Shown: positions 1,394-60,583 of the stretch, in pieces
Numbering within the stretch: the stretch's first letter is position 1
Layout: every line of letters starts with the position of its first letter
Origin: an uncultured Patescibacteria group bacterium
GTDB taxonomy: Bacteria; Patescibacteriota; Minisyncoccia; Phycocordibacterales; UBA918
NCBI GenBank assembly: GCA_934699595.1
Contig: CAKUWT010000003.1
Coordinates: forward strand, 10,130-74,129
DNA length: 64,000 nt
Reading direction: 5' to 3'
Program-made: the position numbers and the translations under genes
The notes under the pieces: generated by a model
Seen by the model: the letters and a program-made list of their open reading frames with translations, nothing else
The model's database searches: none
Told to the model about the DNA's origin: nothing

Positions 1394-1777
1394 TTATGGT
1401 TTTGGTGGCGTGAACTTGTCGAAGCGATCAGTGTTAAACACACTATCGCAGCCAGAGGCACCCGGGTTATCAGCGCAATCTAGGGTATCCCCTAGGTTGA
1501 AAGTGCCGGCAGCAATTTTCAAAATAGCGAAGGCTGAGAGCATGACCAACATGCCAATTATTCCCCACATAATATGTTTTTGTCCTTCTGCCCGAGCAGC
1601 TGGATTGTTCGCGTTTGTGACGTACATCACCGCTCCATATACAAACACCAGTAAAGCCAGTGCGATCATTAAAGTAATGATCGGAAAAAGGATAATGTCG
1701 TTGACTTTTTCCACAAAACCTCGGGCTACATCCACTCCTGGAGATTGAGCGTGAGCGATAGTGATTAAATAAGGCAT
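1394..1777 (-). CDS. T4SS pilin-like small membrane protein (TrbC/VirB2-like family common in CPR)
   Basis: 127 aa with two hydrophobic helices and the motif ALALLVFVYG that is shared with the neighbouring paralogs. Confidence 0.55.
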   Translation of the reverse strand: MPYLITIAHAQSPGVDVARGFVEKVNDIILFPIITLMIALALLVFVYGAVMYVTNANNPAARAEGQKHIMWGIIGMLVMLSAFAILKIAAGTFNLGDTLDCADNPGASGCDSVFNTDRFDKFTPPKP

Positions 1778-1804
1778 AATTATCTATGAAACCAAAGAAT
1801 GATT

Positions 1805-2203
1805 CTAACCACCCCAGGTCGGTGCAGTAGGTAGAGTGGGAGTGCCAGACACACCTAAGCCGGTTACAATCAAGTTAACCACTCCGAAGAAAATCAGAAC
1901 TATCACAAACCCAGCGATAGAGTAGGTGATCAAATATGTTCCCTTCTTTCGCTCCTCTTCATTGGCCGCTCCTTTAACATAAAAAATAAATACTCCCCAG
2001 ACAAATACCAAAAAGGCGAGGGCTAGGATAGCCGGAATCAGGATGGAGTTGATAAACTCTGCAACATTTTTTAGAATGACAGCGAATGAATTACTCTTTG
2101 CCCACCCAGCAGAACCAATACCAGTCCCTGCCCCTTGAGCGAAAGTCACGAATGGGAGTACAGACAAAAAGGTCGCTAATAGGGCTGAATAAATTTTCTC
2201 CAT
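1805..2203 (-). CDS. T4SS pilin-like protein with signal peptide (paralog 2)
   Basis: Motif NSILIPAILALAFLVFVWG is identical to paralog 3. ATG at 2203; the track start at 2221 is a TTG. Confidence 0.6.
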   Translation of the reverse strand: MEKIYSALLATFLSVLPFVTFAQGAGTGIGSAGWAKSNSFAVILKNVAEFINSILIPAILALAFLVFVWGVFIFYVKGAANEEERKKGTYLITYSIAGFVIVLIFFGVVNLIVTGLGVSGTPTLPTAPTWGG

Positions 2204-2318
2204 AAATATATATTTAGGCAAGTTACTTAAAATATTTGTAAACTATCTTACATTATTCCTAATTCTAACATGGTCCTTGTGTAGATATGGCTAAATAAAC
2301 CTTCCCGTGTAGATAAAA

Positions 2319-2349
2319 ACCGCTTACTTTATAGTAAGCGGTTTTTACC
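2319..2349. terminator. hairpin aaccgcttact..agtaagcggtt flanked by A/T runs (bidirectional terminator)
   Basis: Perfect 11-bp stem followed by ttttt, read directly from the sequence downstream of the pilin gene 2403..2786(-). Confidence 0.5.
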
Positions 2350-2402
2350 GACATGTTTGAGTTGAGACGAAAACTACTTTAAAAAGCTGCGCTTACTAAG
2401 GC

Positions 2403-2786
2403 TTAAACCTCAACACCTACTGGTCGGGTAATGGTATCACCCTCAAGGCCGCTGCCAAAACCTTCAATCAGTAAGTTAACTAGACCAAAGAAAATCAGAA
2501 TAACGACGAATCCAGCCAAGGCATAGATCATCAAACTTCGACCCTTGCCCTTAGCTTCATCATCAGCACCACCTTTAATAAAATAAAGGAAGATACCCCA
2601 AACAAATACCAAAAAGGCGAGGGCTAGAATAGCCGGAATCAGGATGGAGTTGATGAACATCACCAGATTCTGGATAATTTGAGCAAACCGATTGCCAGTA
2701 CCATCGCTAATCAATCCTTGAGCACTAGCTGCAAATGGCAGTACCGCGAGGACGCCTAGAGTCAATAATGAAGAGATTTTTTTCAT
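2403..2786 (-). CDS. T4SS pilin-like protein with signal peptide (paralog 3)
   Basis: Signal peptide plus NSILIPAILALAFLVFVWGIFLYFIKGG; a tandem paralog of 1805..2203. Confidence 0.65.
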   Translation of the reverse strand: MKKISSLLTLGVLAVLPFAASAQGLISDGTGNRFAQIIQNLVMFINSILIPAILALAFLVFVWGIFLYFIKGGADDEAKGKGRSLMIYALAGFVVILIFFGLVNLLIEGFGSGLEGDTITRPVGVEV

Positions 2787-2912
2787 GAACTTATGCGTAA
2801 TAAATAATAATGATTAATCTACACGGAGTACGATGATCTCTCGTAGACTCAATAAACAATACCTCAAAAATACCTAGATGTAAACTTACCGTATCACTAC
2901 CCTGTGGGAAAA

Positions 2913-3170
2913 CTAACCGAACAGTCCCGCTCTGAGAATTGCCAAAATCCCCCACAAGCTAGATATAATTGCCAACACAATAATACCGACAGTTAAAGTT
3001 ACCCTTCCCTCAGCATGTTTCTTTTCATCACCAGCATTTATTATCCAGGAATCCACCAATTTCCAAACAATTACCAAAAAAGCCACTGCTATTAAAACTG
3101 GAATCATTAAATTAATTAAACCAATAATATGATTAACTAAATCGGCTAAGGTATTTGGAGGACTACTCAT
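2913..3170 (-). CDS. small pilin-like membrane protein (paralog 4, no signal peptide)
   Basis: 85 aa, two TM helices, VLIAVAFLVIVWKL resembles the core of the neighbours. Confidence 0.45.
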   Translation of the reverse strand: MSSPPNTLADLVNHIIGLINLMIPVLIAVAFLVIVWKLVDSWIINAGDEKKHAEGRVTLTVGIIVLAIISSLWGILAILRAGLFG

Positions 3171-3180
3171 AATAATTGAA

Positions 3181-3633
3181 TTAACCAGCGAAGGAATCCA
3201 CTAAATTCTTAATAATTTCCGCGATCGTAACCGCTCCCAAGATGAGCACACCACCGATGACCGCGTAAGTGAGAGCCGCGGTAGCTTTTTGGGTTTCGGC
3301 AGCATTGCCACGGGCGGTGACATACTTAAAACCAGCTAGAATAATGAAGAAGACCACCACGGGAATGGCGAGAATTATCACCACATTGAGAATCCCGACC
3401 ATAAACTCATTAAAAGAACCAAATCTTGACATAGGGTTTTCTAGCTTTACTGAACCTGCGGCTGTTGGACTACCGCCTGAGCCACCACTCTTACCTCCAG
3501 TCGGAGAGAGTGCCCCGTCAGATCCAAAATGTTGAGCTAAAGAAAAACTAGGCAAGCTCAAGAGTACCAATGGAAAAAGTATTAACAAAGAACAAACGAT
3601 ACTATTAGCTACTATCCGAAGTTGATTTCTCAT
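3181..3633 (-). CDS. pilin-like secreted/membrane protein with Gly/Ser-rich linker (paralog 5)
   Basis: Signal peptide, GGKSGGSGGS linker, C-terminal hydrophobic hairpin IPVVVFFIILAGFKYV as in T4SS pilins. Confidence 0.5.
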   Translation of the reverse strand: MRNQLRIVANSIVCSLLILFPLVLLSLPSFSLAQHFGSDGALSPTGGKSGGSGGSPTAAGSVKLENPMSRFGSFNEFMVGILNVVIILAIPVVVFFIILAGFKYVTARGNAAETQKATAALTYAVIGGVLILGAVTIAEIIKNLVDSFAG

Positions 3634-18282: not shown

Positions 18283-18408
18283 AGAATCGAGTGCTAGTTC
18301 GAGCACTCGACAAGGGTAACGAAAGGAGTAGAACCTTGTTTCTGCTCCTTTCGTGTATATAGATATAAAAATGTACAACGAAGTATAAAGTTGTAAAATT
18401 GATAAAGT

Positions 18409-21111
18409 ATGGCTAGTCTCTTAGAAAAAATTGATGTAATCAATGAAAAAATAAACAAGAACATCGCTATCCTCTCAAATAATGAGCGTGGTCTTGCGTC
18501 TCAGGCAATCCTGGACGATCTCCGTGATCTAGTTGAACACACTGCTGTTTTAATTCACGCTGGTCAAGAAGCAGAAATTGGTTTTGATCTAATCAAAGAA
18601 AGTCTTGAACATATACGTGGATTCTCCAAATACAGTTTTCTATACAAGCTACATAGTAGATTGAATTTAGCTATTTCACATTATGAGCCTAATGAAAGTG
18701 ATGCTGAAATGCTAATGCTAGGCTACATGCATAATTTATTTCTTATAAAGAAATTTTATCTTAAAAATTATAATCATCTCATTTTACAAGATTTACGAAA
18801 TTATCCGTTAAATCTAGATCCTGGCTTATCAGATTATTACAAAGCTATAATTGATAAAATAAAAACTTCTAATTATGAAGAAGTAGACAAAGCTGATTTT
18901 TATATTGACCGAGTAAAACCACTGATTATCGACAACGAACTGTATTATGAGGTAACTTTTCGACCCGCAACAAATAATTTTGCAAAGTTTAATAAAACGG
19001 TGGCATATACAAAGCGTAAAATTACAACAAACTACGCACTTAAGCTGACTTTAGCAAAAACTCAAATAGACGTATTTGATACAAAATCACGTGTTCTCAT
19101 TATATTAGACTTTGAGATCTCAATTCGTCCGTGTGAAATACAACACCTGGGAATGATTTTTGATAGAGGTTTTACGTTCAATAGTAGGACGAAAGAATAT
19201 CAAAATCTGATGAGTGCTTTAAAGGTTAGTCAGTTAACATTGCTTGAGGTAGTGACTCTAAATGAGACCAGATTTGAAAAATTTAAAAAATATTTAAGCG
19301 ATGACGCGCGCTCAGTAAAAATATTAGAGGTTCTTGAAAAATGTAGACAAATAATCATAGAAGATTTAAATGGCTCTAATATTTTGAGGTATCTTCTGGC
19401 TAATCTAAATAATGCTGTTCTGAAGAAACAGCTAAACACCGAGAAGTGCAATATACTTTCGGGTATGTTTTTAAAGAATGGCTGTCGAGTATTCGACGAC
19501 ATGCCTTTCTGTTCATCTCTAAATGGACATAATCCAACGAAGCTTTCTTTAATTGATTGTATCTCCCCAGAAAATAGAAAACATGAATTCTTGGCAAGAC
19601 ATATTAATCAAAACGCAAGAACAAAAAAGATTCTCTATACTCCTATTGAAGAGGTGCAGAAAGTTTATAATGTTGATCAAGAGATCGAGGCTTTTAATTC
19701 AAAAATTTGGGAAGGTCACAAGCCCGCTCGTGAATTGAGAACTTACTCCAAGTATATATACAATTATGGAGCCGAGAAAGATTGTCATGACATATTTACT
19801 AAAATCTTAAGTCTTACCGATTCGGGCATTGAAGATTACCAAACACTCATTGATCTGTGGCTTGACCAACAAAGTGACGATGTCATTGATTCGGATCAGA
19901 AGAGACAAGTTCTAAGAGAATTATTTGCAGAAACACACGTTGCGCTCATTTATGGATCGGCGGGTACTGGGAAAACCAAGATGATTGAATATATTGATAA
20001 TGTATTTCAAGCTGAAAATAAAATATTTCTCTCTAACACAAATGCCTCAGTAAACAATCTCAGGGCCCGAATTGGAGAAAGTGATAAGCATACTTTCTCT
20101 ACGGTTTCTTCATATCTACATAATATTGATGAATATGGTGACTCAGAAATACTTTTTATTGATGAATGCAGTACTGTAAGTAATGCAGATTTGTTACAAA
20201 TTCTCAAGCATAAAAAGTTTGAGAAAATTGTCTTAGTGGGAGATGTTTACCAAATAGAATCAATAGATTTTGGAAACTGGTTTTATCTTTGCAAAAACCT
20301 GCTCCCGAAACATTGCATTTTCGAATTAGATGATACACACAGGACTAAAAAAGAAGACTTGAAACTATATTGGTCTGCTGTTCGAAATTCGGATGATAAT
20401 GTACGCGAAATTGCTTCTAGGGGTCATTTCACCAAACCAGTTGATCAATTCATAAAAAACTATGAGGATAAAGAGGATCAGATTGTACTATGTTTAAACT
20501 ATGATGGTTTATATGGAATCAACAATCTAAATAGACTTTTGCAGGAAAAAAATCAAAATACTGCAGTGGACTGGGGTGTTCATAGTTACAAGGTTGGAGA
20601 CCCCATTATTTTTACCGAATCGTCGAGATTTTTTCCCGTTTTATATAACAACTTAAAGGGGCGCATAGCCAAAATTGACGCTAACGGCGATGAAATAACA
20701 TTTGAAATAGTAATTTCTTATTCACCAAATCCGTTTGATGCCCATCGTTGCGGAGTTGAGTTGTTGGAGAACCTGCCAGACGGTAAATCAAAAATTAAAT
20801 TCTCAGTAAATAAACTAGAAAATGTTGATGAGGATTTAGATGATTCTGATAGATTAGTCCCATTTCAGGTTTCGTATGCTACATCTATTCACAAAGCTCA
20901 AGGTCTTGAGTATAAATCTGTAAAACTTGTTTTTGTTGATGAAGTACAAGATATGGTTACTCATAGTATATTTTATACGGCTATAACCAGAGCCAAAGAG
21001 GAACTAGAAATTTATTGGTCTCCTGAAACTGCAGATAAAGTCTATGAGAAAATTAAAACTAATCTAAATAAGCAGGACTCTTATATTTTTAAGAACAAGT
21101 TTAGCTTATAA
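18409..21111 (+). CDS. 900-aa protein: ~500-aa N-terminal domain of unknown function fused to a C-terminal SF1 (RecD/Dda/Pif1-like) helicase
   Basis: Walker A LIYGSAGTGKTKM, Walker B FIDECSTV, LVGDVYQIESID, UvrD_C-like SYATSIHKAQGLEYKSVKLVFVDE..TAITRAKEELEIYW. The gene is markedly AT-rich. Confidence 0.7.
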   Translation: MASLLEKIDVINEKINKNIAILSNNERGLASQAILDDLRDLVEHTAVLIHAGQEAEIGFDLIKESLEHIRGFSKYSFLYKLHSRLNLAISHYEPNESDAEMLMLGYMHNLFLIKKFYLKNYNHLILQDLRNYPLNLDPGLSDYYKAIIDKIKTSNYEEVDKADFYIDRVKPLIIDNELYYEVTFRPATNNFAKFNKTVAYTKRKITTNYALKLTLAKTQIDVFDTKSRVLIILDFEISIRPCEIQHLGMIFDRGFTFNSRTKEYQNLMSALKVSQLTLLEVVTLNETRFEKFKKYLSDDARSVKILEVLEKCRQIIIEDLNGSNILRYLLANLNNAVLKKQLNTEKCNILSGMFLKNGCRVFDDMPFCSSLNGHNPTKLSLIDCISPENRKHEFLARHINQNARTKKILYTPIEEVQKVYNVDQEIEAFNSKIWEGHKPARELRTYSKYIYNYGAEKDCHDIFTKILSLTDSGIEDYQTLIDLWLDQQSDDVIDSDQKRQVLRELFAETHVALIYGSAGTGKTKMIEYIDNVFQAENKIFLSNTNASVNNLRARIGESDKHTFSTVSSYLHNIDEYGDSEILFIDECSTVSNADLLQILKHKKFEKIVLVGDVYQIESIDFGNWFYLCKNLLPKHCIFELDDTHRTKKEDLKLYWSAVRNSDDNVREIASRGHFTKPVDQFIKNYEDKEDQIVLCLNYDGLYGINNLNRLLQEKNQNTAVDWGVHSYKVGDPIIFTESSRFFPVLYNNLKGRIAKIDANGDEITFEIVISYSPNPFDAHRCGVELLENLPDGKSKIKFSVNKLENVDEDLDDSDRLVPFQVSYATSIHKAQGLEYKSVKLVFVDEVQDMVTHSIFYTAITRAKEELEIYWSPETADKVYEKIKTNLNKQDSYIFKNKFSL

Positions 21112-21133
21112 CTAAATTCAATTAGCTATTTTC

Positions 21134-22417
21134 TTATTTCTGAGCTGAAATAATCTTGTTTTTTAGAATTAAATTATTCTTAACACAATTCAGAACTGAT
21201 CTTTTCTCCAAAACTGTCCCGTCTCTCAAAACAAATTTGAGATAATTTCTCAGATCTACCTTCTGTATTTCTGCAGTGTTTTCTTTGCCCAGAAACATTG
21301 CTTGAAGTCTCTTGAATTTCTTGATCTCAAGATTTAACTTTTCGGTAAGTTGCATTTCATTAAGATCAAGTGTGCTTGCCATTTTCTGAAACTCTTTGAG
21401 GAGATCGTTTTCATTTATTGCTGGGTTTTTGCACTTTCTATCCTTTGATTTGGCGCAGCGATAATATACATGTCTGTTCACTCCTCCATTTAGCAACTTC
21501 TTAAACTTCTCATCAGCGGTAATTCCCGATCCGCAAACACCGCACTTCATCATTCGAGTAAAAGCAAATTCCTTGCCTTGTGACTTTATAACCTGTGACT
21601 TGATTGAGTTTCTCGTCTCATCGAATAATTCCTTAGTAATCAGTGGCGTATGTTTGCCCTCATACCAAATACCAGCACCTTGCGGAAACTCAAATTTTCC
21701 ATAATAAAACGTATTGTTAATGATCTTGAATACATTCCCGATACTTAAGTGATAACCACGCAAGGTACGGAAGTTTAAATCGTATTTTAGCCATGCGTGT
21801 ACCTTTGAAGCACTCCATTTATCATAGGCAATTTTCTCAAAGATTTGCCGTATAACATCTGCCCGTTCTGGATCAATTTCTACCTCGCATTTGGCTAGTC
21901 GCCCATCAACTTTTCTATAGCCTGTCGGTGGTTGGGCTGGCCACAATCCCATCTCGCACCTTGTTCTCATGCCACGCTTCACATTGATACTTTTGTTATC
22001 GTTCTCTAGCTTTGCTTGAGAACAGAGAATCATAAGGAGAAACTTATCGCTTGGTGAATTAGTGAAGTTCTGCCCGAACGTTTTAATGGTAATGAGCTTC
22101 TTTTGATCCATGCGGTCAACGAGCTTACCCAAATCTCCAGCATTTCGTGATAATCGATCAGGTGCCCACGTGATAATGGCGTTAAAAATACCATTATCAA
22201 TGTCTCGTACAATCTCTTCAAATACTGGTCTTTGACCTGATTCTTTAGCGGAGTGTGACTCTCTCCTAATTTCAACGATAGTAAGCTTTTCTCGCTCGGC
22301 TATTTGTGTCATTTCTTTGATCTGTGAATCAATCGAAAGAGCTTGTTTTTCGTCACCTTCGGTCGACTTACGAGCGTATAAACAATAACGATATTCGCTT
22401 GGTAATACTTCTGTCAT
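21134..22417 (-). CDS. large serine recombinase (resolvase domain + recombinase domain + zinc ribbon)
   Basis: N-terminal YARKSTEGDEKQALSIDSQ (catalytic Ser region), DRLSRN motif, C-terminal CGVCG..YYRC zinc ribbon; 427 aa. Confidence 0.85.
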   Translation of the reverse strand: MTEVLPSEYRYCLYARKSTEGDEKQALSIDSQIKEMTQIAEREKLTIVEIRRESHSAKESGQRPVFEEIVRDIDNGIFNAIITWAPDRLSRNAGDLGKLVDRMDQKKLITIKTFGQNFTNSPSDKFLLMILCSQAKLENDNKSINVKRGMRTRCEMGLWPAQPPTGYRKVDGRLAKCEVEIDPERADVIRQIFEKIAYDKWSASKVHAWLKYDLNFRTLRGYHLSIGNVFKIINNTFYYGKFEFPQGAGIWYEGKHTPLITKELFDETRNSIKSQVIKSQGKEFAFTRMMKCGVCGSGITADEKFKKLLNGGVNRHVYYRCAKSKDRKCKNPAINENDLLKEFQKMASTLDLNEMQLTEKLNLEIKKFKRLQAMFLGKENTAEIQKVDLRNYLKFVLRDGTVLEKRSVLNCVKNNLILKNKIISAQK

Positions 22418-32650: not shown

Positions 32651-32824
32651 GAAAATGAGGGAAATAGATTTTAGCAATAAGTCCTAGACCCAGTAACATT
32701 TTGGTGTCTATTACCTACAATGTTAACAATCCTGTTGATAAAAACTGGAGACACGGTGGATAACTCTACTTGACGAGATAGTTCAACAACACTTGGCTAC
32801 CTTAGCGAGCTTCATTAAAAAATA

Positions 32825-32833
32825 TGCTAAGAT
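32825..32833 (+). promoter_or_regulatory. extended -10 promoter (TGcTAAGAT) for tRNA-Ser
   Basis: Same TGCTAAGAT element as upstream of tRNA-Glu, 18 nt before the tRNA start. Confidence 0.4.
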
Positions 32834-32851
32834 GATAGCGATCGATAATCC

Positions 32852-32938
32852 GGAAGCGTGGCCGAGCGGCTGAAGGCGCTACCTTGGAAAGGTAGTATGT
32901 GGGTAACTGCATCGTGGGTTCGAATCCCACCGCTTCCG
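32852..32938 (+). tRNA. tRNA-Ser (anticodon GGA), long variable arm
   Basis: Acceptor ggaagcg/cgcttcc, anticodon stem ctacc/ggtag with loop ttGGAaa, long variable arm, T-arm gtgggTTCGAATcccac. Confidence 0.85.
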
Positions 32939-32940
32939 CA

Positions 32941-33133
32941 GTTGGTAACTAACTGCAATTAAGTTATAAAGTATTATCGAGGAAGCTAAACCTTGTTTGA
33001 GCAGAGACTGTTTGGGGAACACTTTCTGAGGATTCGAAAAGCTTTTGCGACGGATTAGGAGTGGCGACAGCCCGAACTAATCCGTCCAAAAGGTGTACTG
33101 AACCTGTAAGGTTCGAATCCCACCGCTTCCGCA
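32941..33133 (+). repeat. tRNA-3'-end-terminated structured element, copy Ser-A (~193 nt), ends with a 24-nt copy of the tRNA-Ser 3' end
   Basis: 3' end ggttcgaatcccaccgcttccgca matches the tRNA-Ser 3' end. Core has degraded hairpin 1 (33003-33029), GAGGATTCGAAAAG (33029-33042) and hairpin 2 ggattag/ctaatcc (33052-33083). Confidence 0.7.
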
Positions 33134-33324
33134 TACTACTTAATAAATATTATTAAGTAACTTAATACTAAAGAGCAAACCAAGCTCTGTTTGGGCAGAA
33201 ACAGTGTGAAGACACTGTTTCTGAGGATTCGAAAAGGTTGCCAGCTATTTTGCGAAGTGGTAGCGAGTAAAAATAGCGACAACCTGTACCAAACTCGTAG
33301 AGTTCGAATCCCACCGCTTCCGCA
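33134..33324 (+). repeat. same element, copy Ser-B (~191 nt), tandem to Ser-A, ends with a 23-nt copy of the tRNA-Ser 3' end
   Basis: Hairpin 1 cagaaacagtg tgaaga cactgtttctg (33196-33223), AGGATTCGAAAAG, hairpin 2 ctatttt/aaaatag (33245-33276), 3' gttcgaatcccaccgcttccgca. Confidence 0.7.
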
Positions 33325-33350
33325 TACTCAACATTTATTTAATAAGAAAA

Positions 33351-33378
33351 GGGAGCACAGTAGATGTGCCCCCTTTTA
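33351..33378 (+). terminator. GC hairpin + T-run (gggagcacag tagat gtgccccc tttt) closing the tRNA-Ser/element array
   Basis: Imperfect 9-bp stem followed by tttt, seen in sequence. Confidence 0.45.
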
Positions 33379-33409
33379 TGGATTATTTCTGTTACTGCCA
33401 CTACCTTCC

Positions 33410-33808
33410 TCACATAACCAAAGTCGGTGAAAAAAGAGCTTCCAGCAGGTTATCCTCTCCCAGGACATAAGCCCCTTCAATTCCTCGTACTCCCCACAGA
33501 TCATAGATAGAGGTCTTAAATGCAACCAGACTCTCTCTTGACTCTAAGTACACCTCCAGTGGGACAACTCCCCGCTGAGTCCTTCTTACAAACGTCATTG
33601 ACCAGTATTCACGGACATAGTTATACCAAACCATAGCGTCGAGTCGCATCTCCCCCACGTTAAAATACACAAGCGCACTACTCAGACCTGCTGTCAGAGG
33701 ATGATCATTGTCTCGAAAGATCTCCACCAATCTCTCAAGTGATACTGATGATCTTTCCACCCCTACCTCCCATTTTTCTAAGAGACCTCCTCCTCTAGAA
33801 TAAGTCAA
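33410..33808 (-). CDS. hypothetical protein
   Basis: 132-aa ORF, no motif recognised. Confidence 0.35.
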   Translation of the reverse strand: MTYSRGGGLLEKWEVGVERSSVSLERLVEIFRDNDHPLTAGLSSALVYFNVGEMRLDAMVWYNYVREYWSMTFVRRTQRGVVPLEVYLESRESLVAFKTSIYDLWGVRGIEGAYVLGEDNLLEALFSPTLVM

Positions 33809-44771: not shown

Positions 44772-44843
44772 GCCCCGGTAGTTCAATGGATAGAACAATT
44801 CCGTCCTAAGGAAAAAATGTGGGTTCGATTCCTGCCCGGGGCA
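44772..44843 (+). tRNA. tRNA-Arg (anticodon CCU)
   Basis: Acceptor gccccgg/ccggggc, anticodon loop gtCCTaa, T-arm gtgggTTCGATTcctgc (two G-U pairs). Confidence 0.8.
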
Positions 44844-45032
44844 CAGTTTGGCAGTAAATATTATTATGCTGTAAGGCTTTATTTTAAAATACTGAATGTT
44901 GTTCGGGTGAAAACAGTCTGGGGGACTGTTTTCGTGAATCGAAGCCTGATTGAGATATTTCTCAGGCGATAGCCGAAAGAAATATCCAATTGGGGTACTG
45001 AAATTGTAAGTTTCGATTCCTGCCCGGGGCAC
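44844..45032 (+). repeat. tRNA-3'-end-terminated structured element, copy Arg (~189 nt), ends with a 21-nt copy of the tRNA-Arg 3' end
   Basis: Hairpin 1 aaaacagtc tgggg gactgtttt (44910-44932), CGTGAATCGAAG, hairpin 2 gatatttc/gaaatatc (44954-44986) with loop ..GGCGATAGCCGAA.., 3' ttcgattcctgcccggggcac (45012-45032). Confidence 0.65.
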
Positions 45033-59523: not shown

Positions 59524-59776
59524 TAATAATATTTACCTACTTATTTTAAATGATATTTATTAATAGTAAAAGAGTACCCACACTTAAGTTGCAAATTCTC
59601 TTAATAGTTGTCTCTTATTATAAAAAATCTCAATCAAACTATAGTTAGTTTTGCGGGACGTTGATCCAAACACAAGTAAAATAGAACTGATCTAGCAATA
59701 TCAGCACACAGAAATAGAATTCGACTTGCTGTGAAAAATTATATGGCTTACTGGTATTATTTAGTAAGTATGTTTA

Positions 59777-59905
59777 CTGCCGGACAGGGATTCGAACTCT
59801 ACGAGTTCAGTACACCTTTTGGACAGATTAGTTCGGCTATCGCCTCCTAATCTGCCTCAAAAGCTTTTCGAATCCTCAAAAACAGTCCCCCAGACTGTTT
59901 TTGCC
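59777..59905 (-). repeat. tRNA-3'-end-terminated structured element, copy Gln (core ~130 nt), ends with a 21-nt near-copy of the tRNA-Gln 3' end
   Basis: Minus strand: hairpin 1 aaaacagtc tgggggg gactgtttt (59868-59891), GAGGATTCGAAAAG, hairpin 2 gattag/ctaatc (59826-59852), 3' gttcgaatccctgtccggcag (59797-59777). About 85% identical to Ser-A over ~100 nt. Confidence 0.65.
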
Positions 59906-60063
59906 CCAATGGAGTCTTGTTTCCTTTAGACGTCTTAGTAACGTAATAAGATTACGTTACATACTCGCTGGCCGTCTCGAGCTAGAACCGTACACGGTCA
60001 AGCTCAGCTTGACCTTTTAACTATTCTTTTGAATCTAAATCAGAAGGGTCTCGTGCGCTTAAT

Positions 60064-60462
60064 TTATTTTGGTACATCAAGTGAATCAATAACGTTAATC
60101 AACCAGTTACCCGTGAGCTTATCTTGCATCTGCTTAATCTGTTCTTTTGTAAACCATTGGAGGTCAAGAATTTCATCCTTTGCATATGCTAATTCGCCAC
60201 TAATTATTTTTCCTAAATAAACGTGTGTTTCTTTTGTTCCAAGAAATGGATTTTCTATTACGGTTAGCTTCTTTACTAGTTCAACATCAAGCCCAGTCTC
60301 TTCTTTTACTTCTCTAACTGCAGCGACCTCTAAATCCTCTACTCCTTCGACTTTACCTTGCTGCCAGTTCCATAAACCATAGATAATTTTTGTAGCCTCC
60401 TGTCCTAAAAGAAACCTTCCGTCTTTTTCAATCAAAACTGCAACTCTGATATCAGTATTCAT
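60064..60462 (-). CDS. NUDIX hydrolase
   Basis: GKVEGVEDLEVAAVREVKEETGLDVE Nudix box; ATG at 60460-60462. Confidence 0.7.
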   Translation of the reverse strand: MNTDIRVAVLIEKDGRFLLGQEATKIIYGLWNWQQGKVEGVEDLEVAAVREVKEETGLDVELVKKLTVIENPFLGTKETHVYLGKIISGELAYAKDEILDLQWFTKEQIKQMQDKLTGNWLINVIDSLDVPK

Positions 60463-60509
60463 ATCCAAAGTATATCAAAAGTAATTAAACTCTTCGTACT
60501 AGCACGAGT

Positions 60510-60583
60510 TGGCTGCCGGACAGGGACTCGAACCCCGATACCCAGGACCAAAACCTGGTGTCCTACCTTTAGACGATCCGGCA
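60510..60583 (-). tRNA. tRNA-Gln (anticodon UUG), CCA encoded
   Basis: Reverse complement: acceptor tgccgga/tccggca, anticodon stem ccagg/cctgg with loop ttTTGgt, T-arm cggggTTCGAGTccctg, 3' gcca. Confidence 0.85.

Follow-up and report, generated by a model that had tools for sequence, protein, structure and literature searches.

What are the structured elements that follow tRNA genes in this Patescibacteria genome and end in a copy of the 3' end of the tRNA beside them? In the stretch of DNA analysed here (the window, 64,000 nt) we found only four such units, two in tandem behind tRNA-Ser, one behind tRNA-Arg and one beyond a NUDIX gene at tRNA-Gln (Table 1). They are 130-190 nt long, non-coding and strongly folding, and a literature search found no description of such units. 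In their behaviour they resemble mobile cassettes that target tRNA genes, of a kind not yet described.

The units in the window and their relatives

With filters switched off, the covariance model R1 matched the four window copies only, at 73.7-79.5 bits (E ~1e-15 to 5e-17), and the runner-up in the window scored 10.5 bits, so the four-copy family is not a product of chance. The coordinates given for tRNA-Ser and its tandem units in a preliminary description of this DNA were borne out by ARAGORN, Rfam and repeat mapping, and the terminator-like hairpin said to close this array was found together with its T-run; it is probably the native terminator of tRNA-Ser. Both Ser units end in TTCGAATCCCACCGCTTCCGC(A), identical to tRNA-Ser T54-C74. 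The identity of the Ser copies, put earlier at 23-24 nt, is actually 22 nt, with different bases preceding TTCGA (GGG, AGG, GAG). SerB has an H2 subfamily (GGTT-GCCAG...CGACAACC) that differs from that of SerA. The unit behind tRNA-Arg(cct) ends, as had been described, in an exact 21-nt copy of the tail of its own tRNA, and its box GTGAATCGAAG is a variant complementary to TTCGATTC. For the Gln unit the corresponding claim stood in part: the tail TCCCTGTCCGGCAG is that of tRNA-Gln, but the T-loop part of this right copy is of the element type, TTCGAAT, where the tRNA has TTCGAGT. The unit lies ~600 nt from tRNA-Gln with a NUDIX ORF between them, presumed to be cassette cargo; a gene identical to this ORF, at locus L118, has a PF00293 match. 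Three things had been overlooked earlier, namely that the Gln locus has a Nudix gene as presumed cargo, that the acceptor strand is also copied in antisense, and that the units are spread across Patescibacteria.

Table 1. Positions of the tRNA genes, units and associated features in the window.
Feature	Position	Strand	Basis
tRNA-Ser(gga), target gene	32852..32939	+	ARAGORN, Rfam
tRNA-Ser T54-C74, left copy of the direct repeat	32919-32939	+	repeat mapping
Unit SerA, 5' part AT-rich with a weak hairpin	32940..33132	+	sequence, fold, R1 match 33025-33132, 73.7 bits
SerA short anti-acceptor GGAAGC	32981-32986	+	
SerA H1	~33002-33029	+	
SerA box GAGGATTCGAAAAG	33028-33041	+	box match
SerA H2	33042-33093	+	
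SerA joiner GTAC	33095-33098	+	
SerA H3	33099-33115	+	
SerA T54-C74 copy	33112-33132	+	
Unit SerB	33133..33323	+	sequence, fold, R1 match 33220-33323, 74.9 bits
SerB H0	33137-33159	+	
SerB H1	33196-33223	+	
SerB box	33223-33236	+	
SerB T54-C74 copy	33303-33323	+	
Intrinsic-terminator-like hairpin (33355-33369) and T-run, closing the tRNA-Ser/unit array	33355..33378	+	
tRNA-Arg(cct), target gene, T-loop TTCGATTCC	44772..44844	+	ARAGORN, Rfam
Unit Arg	44845..45032	+	fold, R1 match 44930-45032, 79.5 bits
Unit Arg H1	~44909-44934	+	
Unit Arg box GTGAATCGAAG, followed by H2 and H3	44934-44944	+	
Unit Arg T54-C74 copy	45012-45032	+	
Unit Gln	59777..59974	-	fold, R1 match 59776-59880, 76.5 bits
Unit Gln H0, followed by H1	59938-59960	-	
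Unit Gln box, followed by H2 and H3	59864-59877	-	
Unit Gln copy	59777-59796	-	
NUDIX hydrolase ORF, 134 aa, between tRNA-Gln and unit Gln	60064..60468	-	ORF call
tRNA-Gln(ttg), target gene, CCA encoded, T-loop TTCGAGT	60510..60583	-	ARAGORN, Rfam

The 26-nt motif GTACYRAANNNGTARNNTTCGAWTCC, taken from the units (~38 bits; ~4 chance matches estimated in 596 Gb), matched at least 117 genome loci, nearly all of them in Patescibacteria among the matches listed, and the units are a real multi-copy family, as had been proposed; among 2.9 million viral contigs there were 0 matches. In most of the loci listed a tRNA on the same strand precedes the unit and the last 21 nt of the unit (T54-C74) equal the 3' end of that tRNA, a pattern that had been put forward from the window and that holds for most loci, not for every one. 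Within the 69 tRNA-adjacent units among the matches listed, the repeat begins in most cases at T54, and it stops 21 nt on, at C74, with or without an encoded CCA. The tRNA segment T54-C74 is common to the junctions as a direct repeat. In a minority of units the repeat measures 14 to ~60 nt, which together with the hybrid T-loops weakened the idea of a fixed-length target-site duplication.

At least 17 tRNA types carry units, and 89 of the 151 tRNAs in the sampled loci have one, the same tRNA types being found both with and without a unit. tRNAs with TTCAAGTCC and TTCGAGTCC mostly go without, a comparison that is biased by the search pattern. Each H2 subfamily serves 4-7 tRNA types, arrays reach up to 6 units per 8 kb, and second units are sometimes truncated. 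At tRNA-Arg(cct) a unit is present in the window and at L124 and absent in a relative (L123), in which this tRNA is also inverted. Look-ups for strain-level empty sites gave no match for the exact protein of a 132-aa neighbour and the same strain only for CTP synthase, and there was no sign of an excised or circular form or of a clean empty site whose flanks were identical.

Folding and the antisense copies of the target

Every hairpin covariation quoted earlier for the Arg, Gln, Ser-A and Ser-B copies was found in the sequence, and stem covariation proved significant once ~100 sequences were added. H2, H3 and a new helix between the box and the T-loop copy covary strongly, with 89.7% of cells paired in the alignment compared to 68.6% in shuffles and a covariation score of 0.511 compared to 0.163; none of 500 shuffles scored as high, and slid controls stayed at or below 0.17. 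Structure is conserved and covarying across many Patescibacteria classes among the matches listed. At the covarying box:T-loop pair (n=101) there are 58 UA, 35 AU, 6 GU and 2 other combinations, and at least six T-loop variants are tracked by the box, further box/T-loop variant pairs being GGACTCGAA/TTCGAGTCC, GGGGGTCGAA/TTCGACCCCC, GGGAGAATCGA/TCGATTCTCCC, GCGAGAATCGGA/TCCGATTCTCGC and GGAGTTGAA/TTCAACTCC. The box GAGGATTCGAAAAG, previously described as single-stranded, is paired with the T-loop portion of the copy at the 3' end and acts as a target-matched antisense segment. Box and T-loop copy form a 9-12-bp inverted repeat whose right arm lies inside the 21-nt target repeat. In the copy, TTCG supplies the 3' strand of H3, and the partner of A58-C62 is the box; the 3' end had been called tRNA-like and is not so in fold, the T-loop copy being buried in H3 and P(box), which leaves the suggested RNase P or RNase Z processing signal unsupported. 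The helices contain 129 G-T pairs compared to 56 A-C pairs, favouring the + strand, and a GC hairpin with a T-run (H0) lies between tRNA and core in most Patescibacteria copies. The compensatory changes had been taken as the mark of a structured RNA and not of a DNA site. The stems do covary, but covariation is also compatible with a folded single-stranded DNA site, for which integron attC and CTX attP are precedents.

Scored against the left tRNA, 40 of 87 units have a perfect antisense acceptor segment (g1) of at least 7 nt, which reaches 12-15 nt in, for example, L105, L044, L084 and L108 and which, where present, pairs through N73 and C74. With this segment and the box, such units contain their target in both orientations, sense and antisense. 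A universal anti-acceptor guide was rejected, as only 18% of units have the match when compared to the right-hand copy, with a median rank no better than that of non-cognate tails. Where the left and right copies are unlike (L011, L045, L057, L088, L105), g1 and box match the left one, which is what joint movement of the left tail with the guides would produce. The mismatches in g1 (17 GT, 26 AC, 60 other) show decay without wobble bias, which indicates that g1 is not a maintained RNA helix; it looks as if g1 was perfect at birth and neutral afterwards. A hybrid junction, with an element-type T-loop and a tRNA-type tail in the right copy, is found in the window Gln unit and in L034, L056 and L108. 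When folded as a circle in the T54 register, four of five units (L009, L044, L089, L105) gave z values of ~-9 to -10 and the tRNA-Trp unit of L084 gave -3.1, all computed against mononucleotide shuffles.

Known classes, neighbouring genes and related systems

At gathering thresholds, Rfam 15 matched only the 6 tRNAs in the whole window, and relaxing the cutoff to E 10 over positions 32800-33450 gave only weak, unrelated matches to MicX (24 bits; gathering 75) and YrlA (14 bits). None of its families accounts for the units, in agreement with the preliminary description, which could place them in no known class. ARAGORN found no tmRNA in the window, and no unit was called as a tRNA by ARAGORN or the Rfam tRNA model. 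A functional tRNA mimic was rejected, since a T-arm/acceptor fold with a free NCCA end was not found and the copy pairs in H3 and with the box, and a hammerhead was rejected by eye on the mismatched order of the core (CUGANGA-stem-GAAA). T-box, tmRNA and group I intron were dropped for want of an Rfam match, the last also because group I introns in Patescibacteria tRNAs sit at position 35/36 (PMC13011429).

All-vs-all clustering of the 1239 ORFs at the 117 loci listed returned housekeeping genes as the only recurrent neighbour families, which ruled out a linked enzyme. None of the recurrent families within 8 kb of these loci is a recombinase, a transposase or a reverse transcriptase; no tnpA or tnpB was found among the ORFs and, as would be looked for in a retron, no reverse transcriptase adjoining the units. 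Taking in the window annotation as well, there was no IntI beside the arrays, no recurring recombinase family and no adjoining DEDD (RuvC-like) recombinase gene, and the units contain no integrase gene. An origin as phage attP was rejected on the 0 motif matches on viral contigs. In the window a recombinase occurs just once, a large serine recombinase that belongs to a separate, unrelated island after tRNA-Glu. The cargo genes found (NUDIX, SduA_C (Shedu), HIT, HNH, SLFN_AlbA_2 (Schlafen), HD and DUF6671) include no integrase; arrays with cargo are L067, L092, L049, L024 and the window Gln locus, and at least one cargo gene (L092) is preceded by its own promoter-like sequence. The window units sit between the tRNA and the first terminator, and a promoter of their own was rejected since no candidate upstream of them passed the sigma-70 scan. 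The palindrome CCAAGTCGTGCTAGCACGAGA after tRNA 3' ends has no consistent downstream gene.

Integron cassettes (attC; the Vibrio cholerae repeats are ~120-130 bp) are like these ~130-190-nt units in keeping structure more than sequence, in strand-specific folding and in having one defined type of chromosomal site for insertion. In both, small accessory or defence genes are interspersed among the units of an array, and "empty" units occur too; here single-strand structure is conserved and the repeated site flanks cargo ORFs in several arrays. In contrast to integron cassettes, the Patescibacteria units have no adjoining IntI gene, attI or Pc promoter, are anchored at the 3' ends of many tRNA genes, carry the target in sense and antisense, form a double three-way junction where attC is one imperfect hairpin, and belong to a family that is nearly all Patescibacteria among the matches listed. 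In CTX-phi and IMEX, folded single-stranded attP(+) mimics dif and is recombined by the host XerCD. The likeness is one of logic, in that a proposed single strand would rebuild a duplex image of the target, interrupted mid-way, and it extends to a recombinase that the element does not encode and to tandem arrays at the target, whereas the unit targets the tRNA from T-loop to acceptor end and not dif, and measures 130-190 nt compared to a phage genome. tRNA-targeting islands, prophages and CIME share with the units the direct repeat from T-loop to tRNA 3' end, an attL/attR-type identity block found here as T54-C74 with hybrid T-loops, as well as a tRNA regenerated on one side and tandem accretion behind it; the units are, however, tiny and without integrase, their hairpins covary, they hold an antisense target copy, and one family covers at least 17 tRNA identities. 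The IS110 bridge RNA and the IS605 omega-RNA are likewise ~150-190-nt non-coding scaffolds with short segments matching the target on both strands or at the 3' end, but the units lack a linked DEDD, TnpA or TnpB gene and an Rfam match, and their guide segments are the same 21 nt in both senses instead of target and donor halves. IS200/IS605 takes its guide from the flank past the right end, whereas the target-matched tail of the unit lies inside the direct repeat and occurs in antisense within it as well. MITEs and REP-BIME repeats are also small, non-coding, multi-copy, hairpin-forming and non-autonomous, and a 9-12-bp inverted repeat is present here, but the units show strict tRNA 3'-end adjacency and orientation, a target-identical repeat of 21 nt (14 to ~60 nt in a minority of units) compared to a 2-10-bp target-site duplication, and no terminal inverted repeats of a known transposase family.

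Possible mobile cassettes and the alternatives

We tentatively regard the units as Patescibacteria-wide miniature non-autonomous integrative elements, cassettes either "empty" or with cargo, that insert at tRNA gene 3' ends, a reading to which we give slightly less than an even chance. Of the two alternatives in the preliminary description, this is the better fitting one, due to the dissimilar tandem units, truncated copies, cargo versions, shared H2 subfamilies and presence or absence among relatives; the unit-free tRNA-Arg and the lack of a nearby recombinase also point to a non-autonomous mobile element. The mobile register would run T54...C74 - trailer - H0 - anti-acceptor (g1) - H1 - box (g2) - H2 - H3. 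A single-stranded circle of DNA or RNA may fold on itself so that g1 and box pair with its own T54-C74 and H1 branches out, and the folded circle would then be a duplex image of the tRNA gene end, with H2 and H3 as a conserved three-way junction beside it. A candidate recombinase or nuclease supplied in trans would exchange strands between the folded site and the tRNA gene within T54-C74, mostly in or just past the T-loop, and the outcome would be an intact tRNA regenerated on the left and the old tRNA tail left on the right. Such a process would resemble the recombination of integron attC with attI or of CTX-phage attP(+) with dif, and repeated events could have produced the tandem arrays and the accessory-gene cassette arrays. 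Against mobile cassettes count the missing recurrent recombinase within 8 kb, the missing excised or circular form and clean empty site, the 0 copies on 2.9 million viral contigs, the difficulty of seeing how a single family would come by sense and antisense copies that match such a range of tRNAs, and a 130-190-nt folded site with three extra hairpins that greatly exceeds attC or CTX attP in complexity. In addition, the GT/AC bias and the position before the first terminator are fitted by a tRNA-cotranscribed RNA at least as well as by a DNA site. It is possible, though doubtful, that the units represent a new Patescibacteria-specific class of element, in which a rod-like or branched single-stranded circle (RNA or DNA) of 130-190 nt, carrying the target in sense and antisense, homes into tRNA genes by base pairing without an element-encoded protein and doubles as the module by which an integron-like cassette system, anchored at tRNA genes, recombines and moves defence and accessory genes.

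Two explanations give the RNA the leading role. In RNA-guided homing, which we consider unlikely, the RNA of the unit (tRNA-promoter read-through or a circle-junction transcript) would pair with both strands of the tRNA gene end via g1/box and the sense tail and recruit a trans-encoded recombinase or nuclease, much as a bridge RNA or omega-RNA does, except that no protein gene is linked. One structured scaffold does hold the 21-nt target in both senses, the box tracks T-loop variants like a guide, pairing is biased to the + strand (GT 129 compared to AC 56), unit and tRNA are always on the same strand, the window units lie within the tRNA transcription unit, and units favour tRNAs with a box-matching T-loop, although this comparison is biased by the search pattern. 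Still, IS110, TnpB, IscB and Cas-type genes are absent near the 117 loci listed, H0 with its T-run parts tRNA from core in most copies and leaves no promoter room, no sigma-70-like promoter was found upstream of the window units, and guide and sense tail would pair in cis. The units could instead be host-beneficial structured RNAs cotranscribed with the tRNA and spread by duplication and gene conversion, not by transposition; they could act as modules for processing or termination, as antisense regulators, or as decoys for the 3' end or 3' fragments of the tRNA. This is rather improbable, as identical tRNA types exist with and without units, unlike tandem units, truncated copies and cargo are traits of selfish elements, g1 decays neutrally, and pairing with 21 nt of a folded mature tRNA is implausible, but it would agree with the covarying structure kept across many Patescibacteria classes, the unit on 89 of 151 tRNAs, the fixed orientation to the tRNA, and antisense segments that fit the functional left tRNA despite a decayed right copy (L011, L045, L057, L088).

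It is quite improbable that the units are what is left (scars, or CIME-like attL-attR remnants mobilisable in cis) of larger phages, plasmids or islands that encode an integrase and integrate into tRNA T-loops, with the core as the attP arm region. The identity block agrees with T-loop-class tyrosine integrases, which, as Williams is said to have reported in 2002, give a block that spans the tRNA from T-loop to 3' end, and tandem accretion and cargo genes would follow as well. However, no integrase adjoins any unit or array in the loci listed, the motif is missing from viral contigs, compensatory hairpin changes are unexpected in attP arms, and integrases are site-specific, yet units of a single core family occur at tRNAs of at least 17 specificities. 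A retro-element or self-primed copying, in which the tRNA 3' end or a folded-back terminator hairpin would prime templated synthesis of the antisense copy, like a retroviral primer-binding site regenerated from its tRNA primer, has very little probability. The antisense copy from T54 to C74 or A76 has the extent of such a site, the H0-centred inverted repeat can take in CCA and trailer (L105, L088), and g1 was seemingly templated at birth, but H1 breaks the antisense copy, H2, H3 and the sense copy are left unaccounted for, no reverse transcriptase lies close to the units at the 117 loci listed, and Patescibacteria are reported to be without group II introns (PMC13011429).

If the units are mobile cassettes, they would be an abundant and so far unannotated means by which accessory and defence genes move, anchored at tRNAs and recognised by nucleic-acid folding or pairing. 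Patescibacteria have tiny genomes and are thought to be poor in mobile DNA. Recombination sites that are set by the fold of a single strand are represented by integrons and CTX-type elements, and mobile cassettes of this kind would be a third example; since the target-matching segments change with the tRNA, the system might be programmable. If the units are functional RNAs, a major bacterial radiation would possess a widespread new class of RNA that is linked to the 3' ends of tRNAs. In addition, the units make partial tRNA copies and repeats, which confuse tRNA annotation, assembly and binning.

tRNA-linked units in the window and beyond

The structured units found 3' of tRNA genes belong to a real and abundant family, which is essentially confined to Patescibacteria and apparently undescribed so far, and the explanation that fits them best is a non-autonomous structured cassette element targeting tRNA 3' ends. 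Six tRNAs were detected in the window with ARAGORN and Rfam, and three of them have units downstream on the same strand. The four copies noticed in the preliminary description were confirmed by a covariance model of the unit core (R1), which with filters off gave them 73.7-79.5 bits and the rest of the window at most 10.5 bits; an Rfam search of the window matched the units to no family. The claim that each unit ends in the 3' end of its own tRNA held for exact copies of 22 nt (Ser), 21 nt (Arg) and 14 nt (Gln), but not for the T-loop part of the Gln copy, which is TTCGAAT versus TTCGAGT in tRNA-Gln.

Positions of tRNAs, units and other features in the window
Feature	Position	Strand	Remark
Four small tandem genes	1394-3633		T4SS_pilin family (PF18895) matches
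Low-GC (0.35) island	18283-22417		directly 3' of tRNA-Glu(ttc)
AAA_30/UvrD_C_2 helicase, 900 aa	18409-21111	+	in tRNA-Glu island
Large serine recombinase, 427 aa	21134-22417	-	Resolvase+Recombinase+Zn_ribbon_recom; in tRNA-Glu island
tRNA-Ser(gga)	32852-32939		ARAGORN, Rfam; then two tandem units
Unit SerA	32940-33132		first of tandem pair
Unit SerB	33133-33323		second of tandem pair
tRNA-Arg(cct)	44772-44844		ARAGORN, Rfam; then one unit
Unit Arg	44845-45032		3' of tRNA-Arg(cct)
Unit Gln	about 59974-59777	-	beyond NUDIX ORF
Hairpin and putative decayed right end	about 59975-60016	-
NUDIX ORF, 134 aa	60064-60468		between tRNA-Gln(ttg) and Gln unit
Palindromic motif	60489-60509	-
tRNA-Gln(ttg)	60510-60583	-	NUDIX ORF, then unit, downstream

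A fixed-length motif common to all four window copies, GTACYRAANNNGTARNNTTCGAWTCC, occurs at no fewer than 117 loci in the species-representative genome collection, with about 4 chance matches estimated for that scan. Among the matches listed, nearly all motif-bearing records are Saccharibacteria, Paceibacteria, Kaiser-, Nomura-, Taylor-, Lloyd- or Zambryskiibacteria, and the motif had 0 matches among 2.9 million viral contigs. R1 found 112 copies in 75 loci (599 kb), up to six per 8 kb, and an nhmmer profile found 160, with a unit directly 3' of 89 of the 151 tRNAs having enough downstream sequence (17 tRNA types). The window itself is from a Patescibacteria genome; its best non-self LepA matches (76-81% identical) come from Paceibacteria-type MAGs. 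Typical units were also seen on contigs in MAGs labelled Patiriisocius (Bacteroidota), Nostocoides (Actinomycetota) and Thermodesulfobacteriota (loci L067, with six units in 8 kb, L075, at 93.8 bits, and L003), which are probably misbinned Patescibacteria contigs.

Anatomy and complementarity to the tRNA end

Each tRNA is followed by a trailer with hairpin H0, an anti-acceptor segment (g1), an optional hairpin H1, the box, hairpin H2, the joiner G(T)GTAC, hairpin H3 and a copy of T54-C74 of the tRNA. H0 resembles an intrinsic terminator, as in most genomes it is a GC stem between A- and T-runs; that of the window units is weak and AT-rich. T54 is the first base of the direct repeat, which in most loci ends exactly 21 nt on, at N73 and C74, independent of whether the left copy (in the tRNA) or the right copy (at the unit's 3' end) continues as CCA.

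In an alignment of 101 sequences, ascertained by a pattern with TTCGAWTCC fixed and with the box position picked by complementarity, 89.7% of the cells of the box helix, H2 and H3 are paired versus 68.6% in shuffles, and the covariation score is 0.511 versus 0.163, a value reached by 0 of 500 shuffles (slid controls, at most 0.17). The 3' strand of H3 is the TTCG of the T-loop copy, and its pair 86-94 is CG in 38 sequences, GC in 32, AU in 27, UA in 3 and broken in none. Within the helices, G-T (129) is commoner than A-C (56). In the variant copies L067, L092, L004 and L080 the TTCG strand and its partner change together, for example from GAA/TTC to GGT/ACC (L067, L092). This variant stem and a second right-end type, in which ...TGACCGAATCC and a tRNA tail without canonical H3 close cargo cassettes and some units (L024, L038, L049, L065), indicate that the family is broader than R1 detects.

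The box had been described as single-stranded, which was not borne out: MFE folds pair GGATTCGAA with TTCGAATCC, and the pairing covaries in the alignment. What the box carries is the T-loop region in antisense. The diagnostic box:T-loop pair, with states GATTCGAA with TTCGAATC and GAATCGAA with TTCGATTC, is UA in 58 of the 101 copies so ascertained, AU in 35, GU in 6 and other in 2, and the box-to-H2 distance is constant. Boxes also match T-loops in copies behind tRNAs with rarer T-loops, found by profile search (GGACTCGAA / TTCGAGTCC in L095, GGGGGTCGAA / TTCGACCCCC in L084, GGGAGAATCGA / TCGATTCTCCC in L004, GCGAGAATCGGA / TCCGATTCTCGC in L088, GGAGTTGAA / TTCAACTCC in L074).

In many units g1, which lies upstream of H1, is perfectly complementary to the acceptor 3' strand and N73-C74, extending in some over CCA and the trailer (examples are TGGTGCTCTCACCAG in L105, GCGGAGAGTGAGG in L044, GTGCCTCGGGAG in L084 and GGGCGGCTACCG in L108). 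With the left tRNA as reference, perfect runs of at least 7 nt occur in 40 of 87 units and of at least 9 nt in 29, compared with just 18% of units in a first test against the right copy; the segment is weak in the window copies (SerA, GGAAGC, 6 nt). The full T54-C74 stretch is complementary to g1 plus the box, from between which H1 branches off. The G53/T54 junction is both the start of the direct repeat and the end of the inverted repeat, so the boundaries coincide. Where the repeat copies are discordant, it is the left, functional tRNA that g1 and the box match (L011, L045, L057, L088, L105). Mismatches in g1 are without wobble enrichment (GT 17, AC 26, other 60), and thus g1 looks perfect at birth and then drifting, unlike H2, H3 and the box helix. 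That g1 is a copy of the tRNA 5' strand was ruled out, as its pairing is Watson-Crick throughout, also at G-U positions of the tRNA (L009, L019). At L045 the left tRNA is Gln(ctg), whose tail TCGGGCA is matched by the anti-acceptor; in the right copy, tail and flank are of the tRNA-Gln(ttg) type. Units at two distinct tRNA-Gln loci may thus have recombined with each other.

Signs of mobility, and cargo

The tandem SerA and SerB differ in H2 subfamily and thus stem from two insertions, not from one unit duplicated in place; four H2 subfamilies were each seen with 4-7 tRNA types and across many lineages. Second units, cut off at differing points, follow some copies (L016, L019, L088). Genes carried as cargo are located either between tRNA and core or between consecutive units, and include NUDIX (window Gln locus), SduA_C/Shedu with a membrane ankyrin protein (L049), HIT (L087), DUF6671 with a Zn-ribbon protein (L024), HNH (L092) and SLFN_AlbA_2/HATPase_c_4 with HD (L067). 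The unit after tRNA-Arg(cct) is present in the window and in the relative L124 (LepA 78% identical), and the syntenic relative L123 (LepA 81% identical) has just a simple hairpin there. This tRNA (9077-9149 in L123) has the opposite orientation there with respect to the conserved LepA-DivIC-Grx...HSP20 neighbourhood; the site therefore counts as a presence/absence difference and not as a cleanly empty one.

Next to the Gln unit, a hairpin GGTCAAGCTGAGCTTGACC is followed by GTGTAC and GGTTCTAGCTCGAGACGGCCAG, the latter identical to the tRNA-Gln T-arm and tail at 14/22 positions with an R1 score that is not significant; these may be the decayed right end of a Nudix-carrying cassette. In several genomes (the window, L024, L045, L048, L066, L089, L109), the CCA of a tRNA-Gln or tRNA-Ser gene, or of its right-hand copy, is followed by a palindromic motif, CCAA(G/C)TCGTGCTAGCACGA(A)GAG, with no consistent gene found downstream of it.

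Proposed recombination and its alternatives

The unit would be self-contained in the register T54...C74 - trailer - H0 - g1 - H1 - box - H2 - H3, and as a circle all its helices would be internal: H3 with TTCG, the box with A58-C62 and g1 with 63-74. Circular folds in the T54 register were computed for five units; against mononucleotide shuffles, L009 had an MFE of -84.7 versus -42.5 +/- 4.2 (z about -10), L044, L089 and L105 had z of -8.8 to -9.7, and the tRNA-Trp unit L084 only -3.1. Such a fold would recreate the end of the tRNA gene in duplex form, with H1 as an interruption. We therefore favour a mechanism in which a folded single-stranded intermediate would recombine with the tRNA gene inside T54-C74, with catalysis in trans. 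A crossover within the T-loop or immediately 3' of it would fit the hybrid right copies, whose T-loop is that of the element and whose tail is that of the tRNA (window Gln unit, L034, L056, L108), the guides matching the left tail, and the native-looking flanks (CCA, terminators) 3' of the right copy.

Two of four rivals give the unit a role as RNA, either in bridge-RNA-like, RNA-guided homing or as a host-beneficial tRNA-linked RNA. An RNA made with the tRNA fits the excess of G-T over A-C, the constant orientation of units with their tRNA and the location of the window units, which precede the first terminator; an independent RNA gene is disfavoured by the terminator-like H0 of most other copies and by the lack of promoters in a scan before the window units. 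The other two, that units are scars of larger integrase-bearing elements or arise by retro- or self-primed copying, are the weakest. The neighbouring ORFs of the motif loci include no recurrent integrase, transposase or reverse transcriptase, the recurrent neighbours being PilM, IF-2, ClpB, IscS and ComF, and the window has none except the large serine recombinase of the separate island after tRNA-Glu.

The units share logic with integron cassettes and attC, CTX-type IMEX elements, T-loop-class tRNA integrative elements with their CIME remnants, guide-bearing IS RNAs and MITEs, and attC and CTX attP(+) are the closest analogies to the proposed trans-catalysed recombination. They fail a defining feature of each of these kinds that was open to testing; neither a linked recombinase nor an Rfam match nor a tRNA-like fold was found. 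We know of no described element with its target in both sense and antisense inside a covarying scaffold of about 150 nt. Full-text literature searching found no published description of the units. A single related paper (PMC13011429) deals with group I introns that sit at position 35/36 of tRNAs in Patescibacteria, and it reports that the phylum lacks group II introns.

The tRNA-Glu island has no copy of the tRNA-Glu 3' end that could be found downstream of the tRNA, and it carries a helicase beside the recombinase. Elsewhere in the window, four small tandem genes match the T4SS_pilin family.
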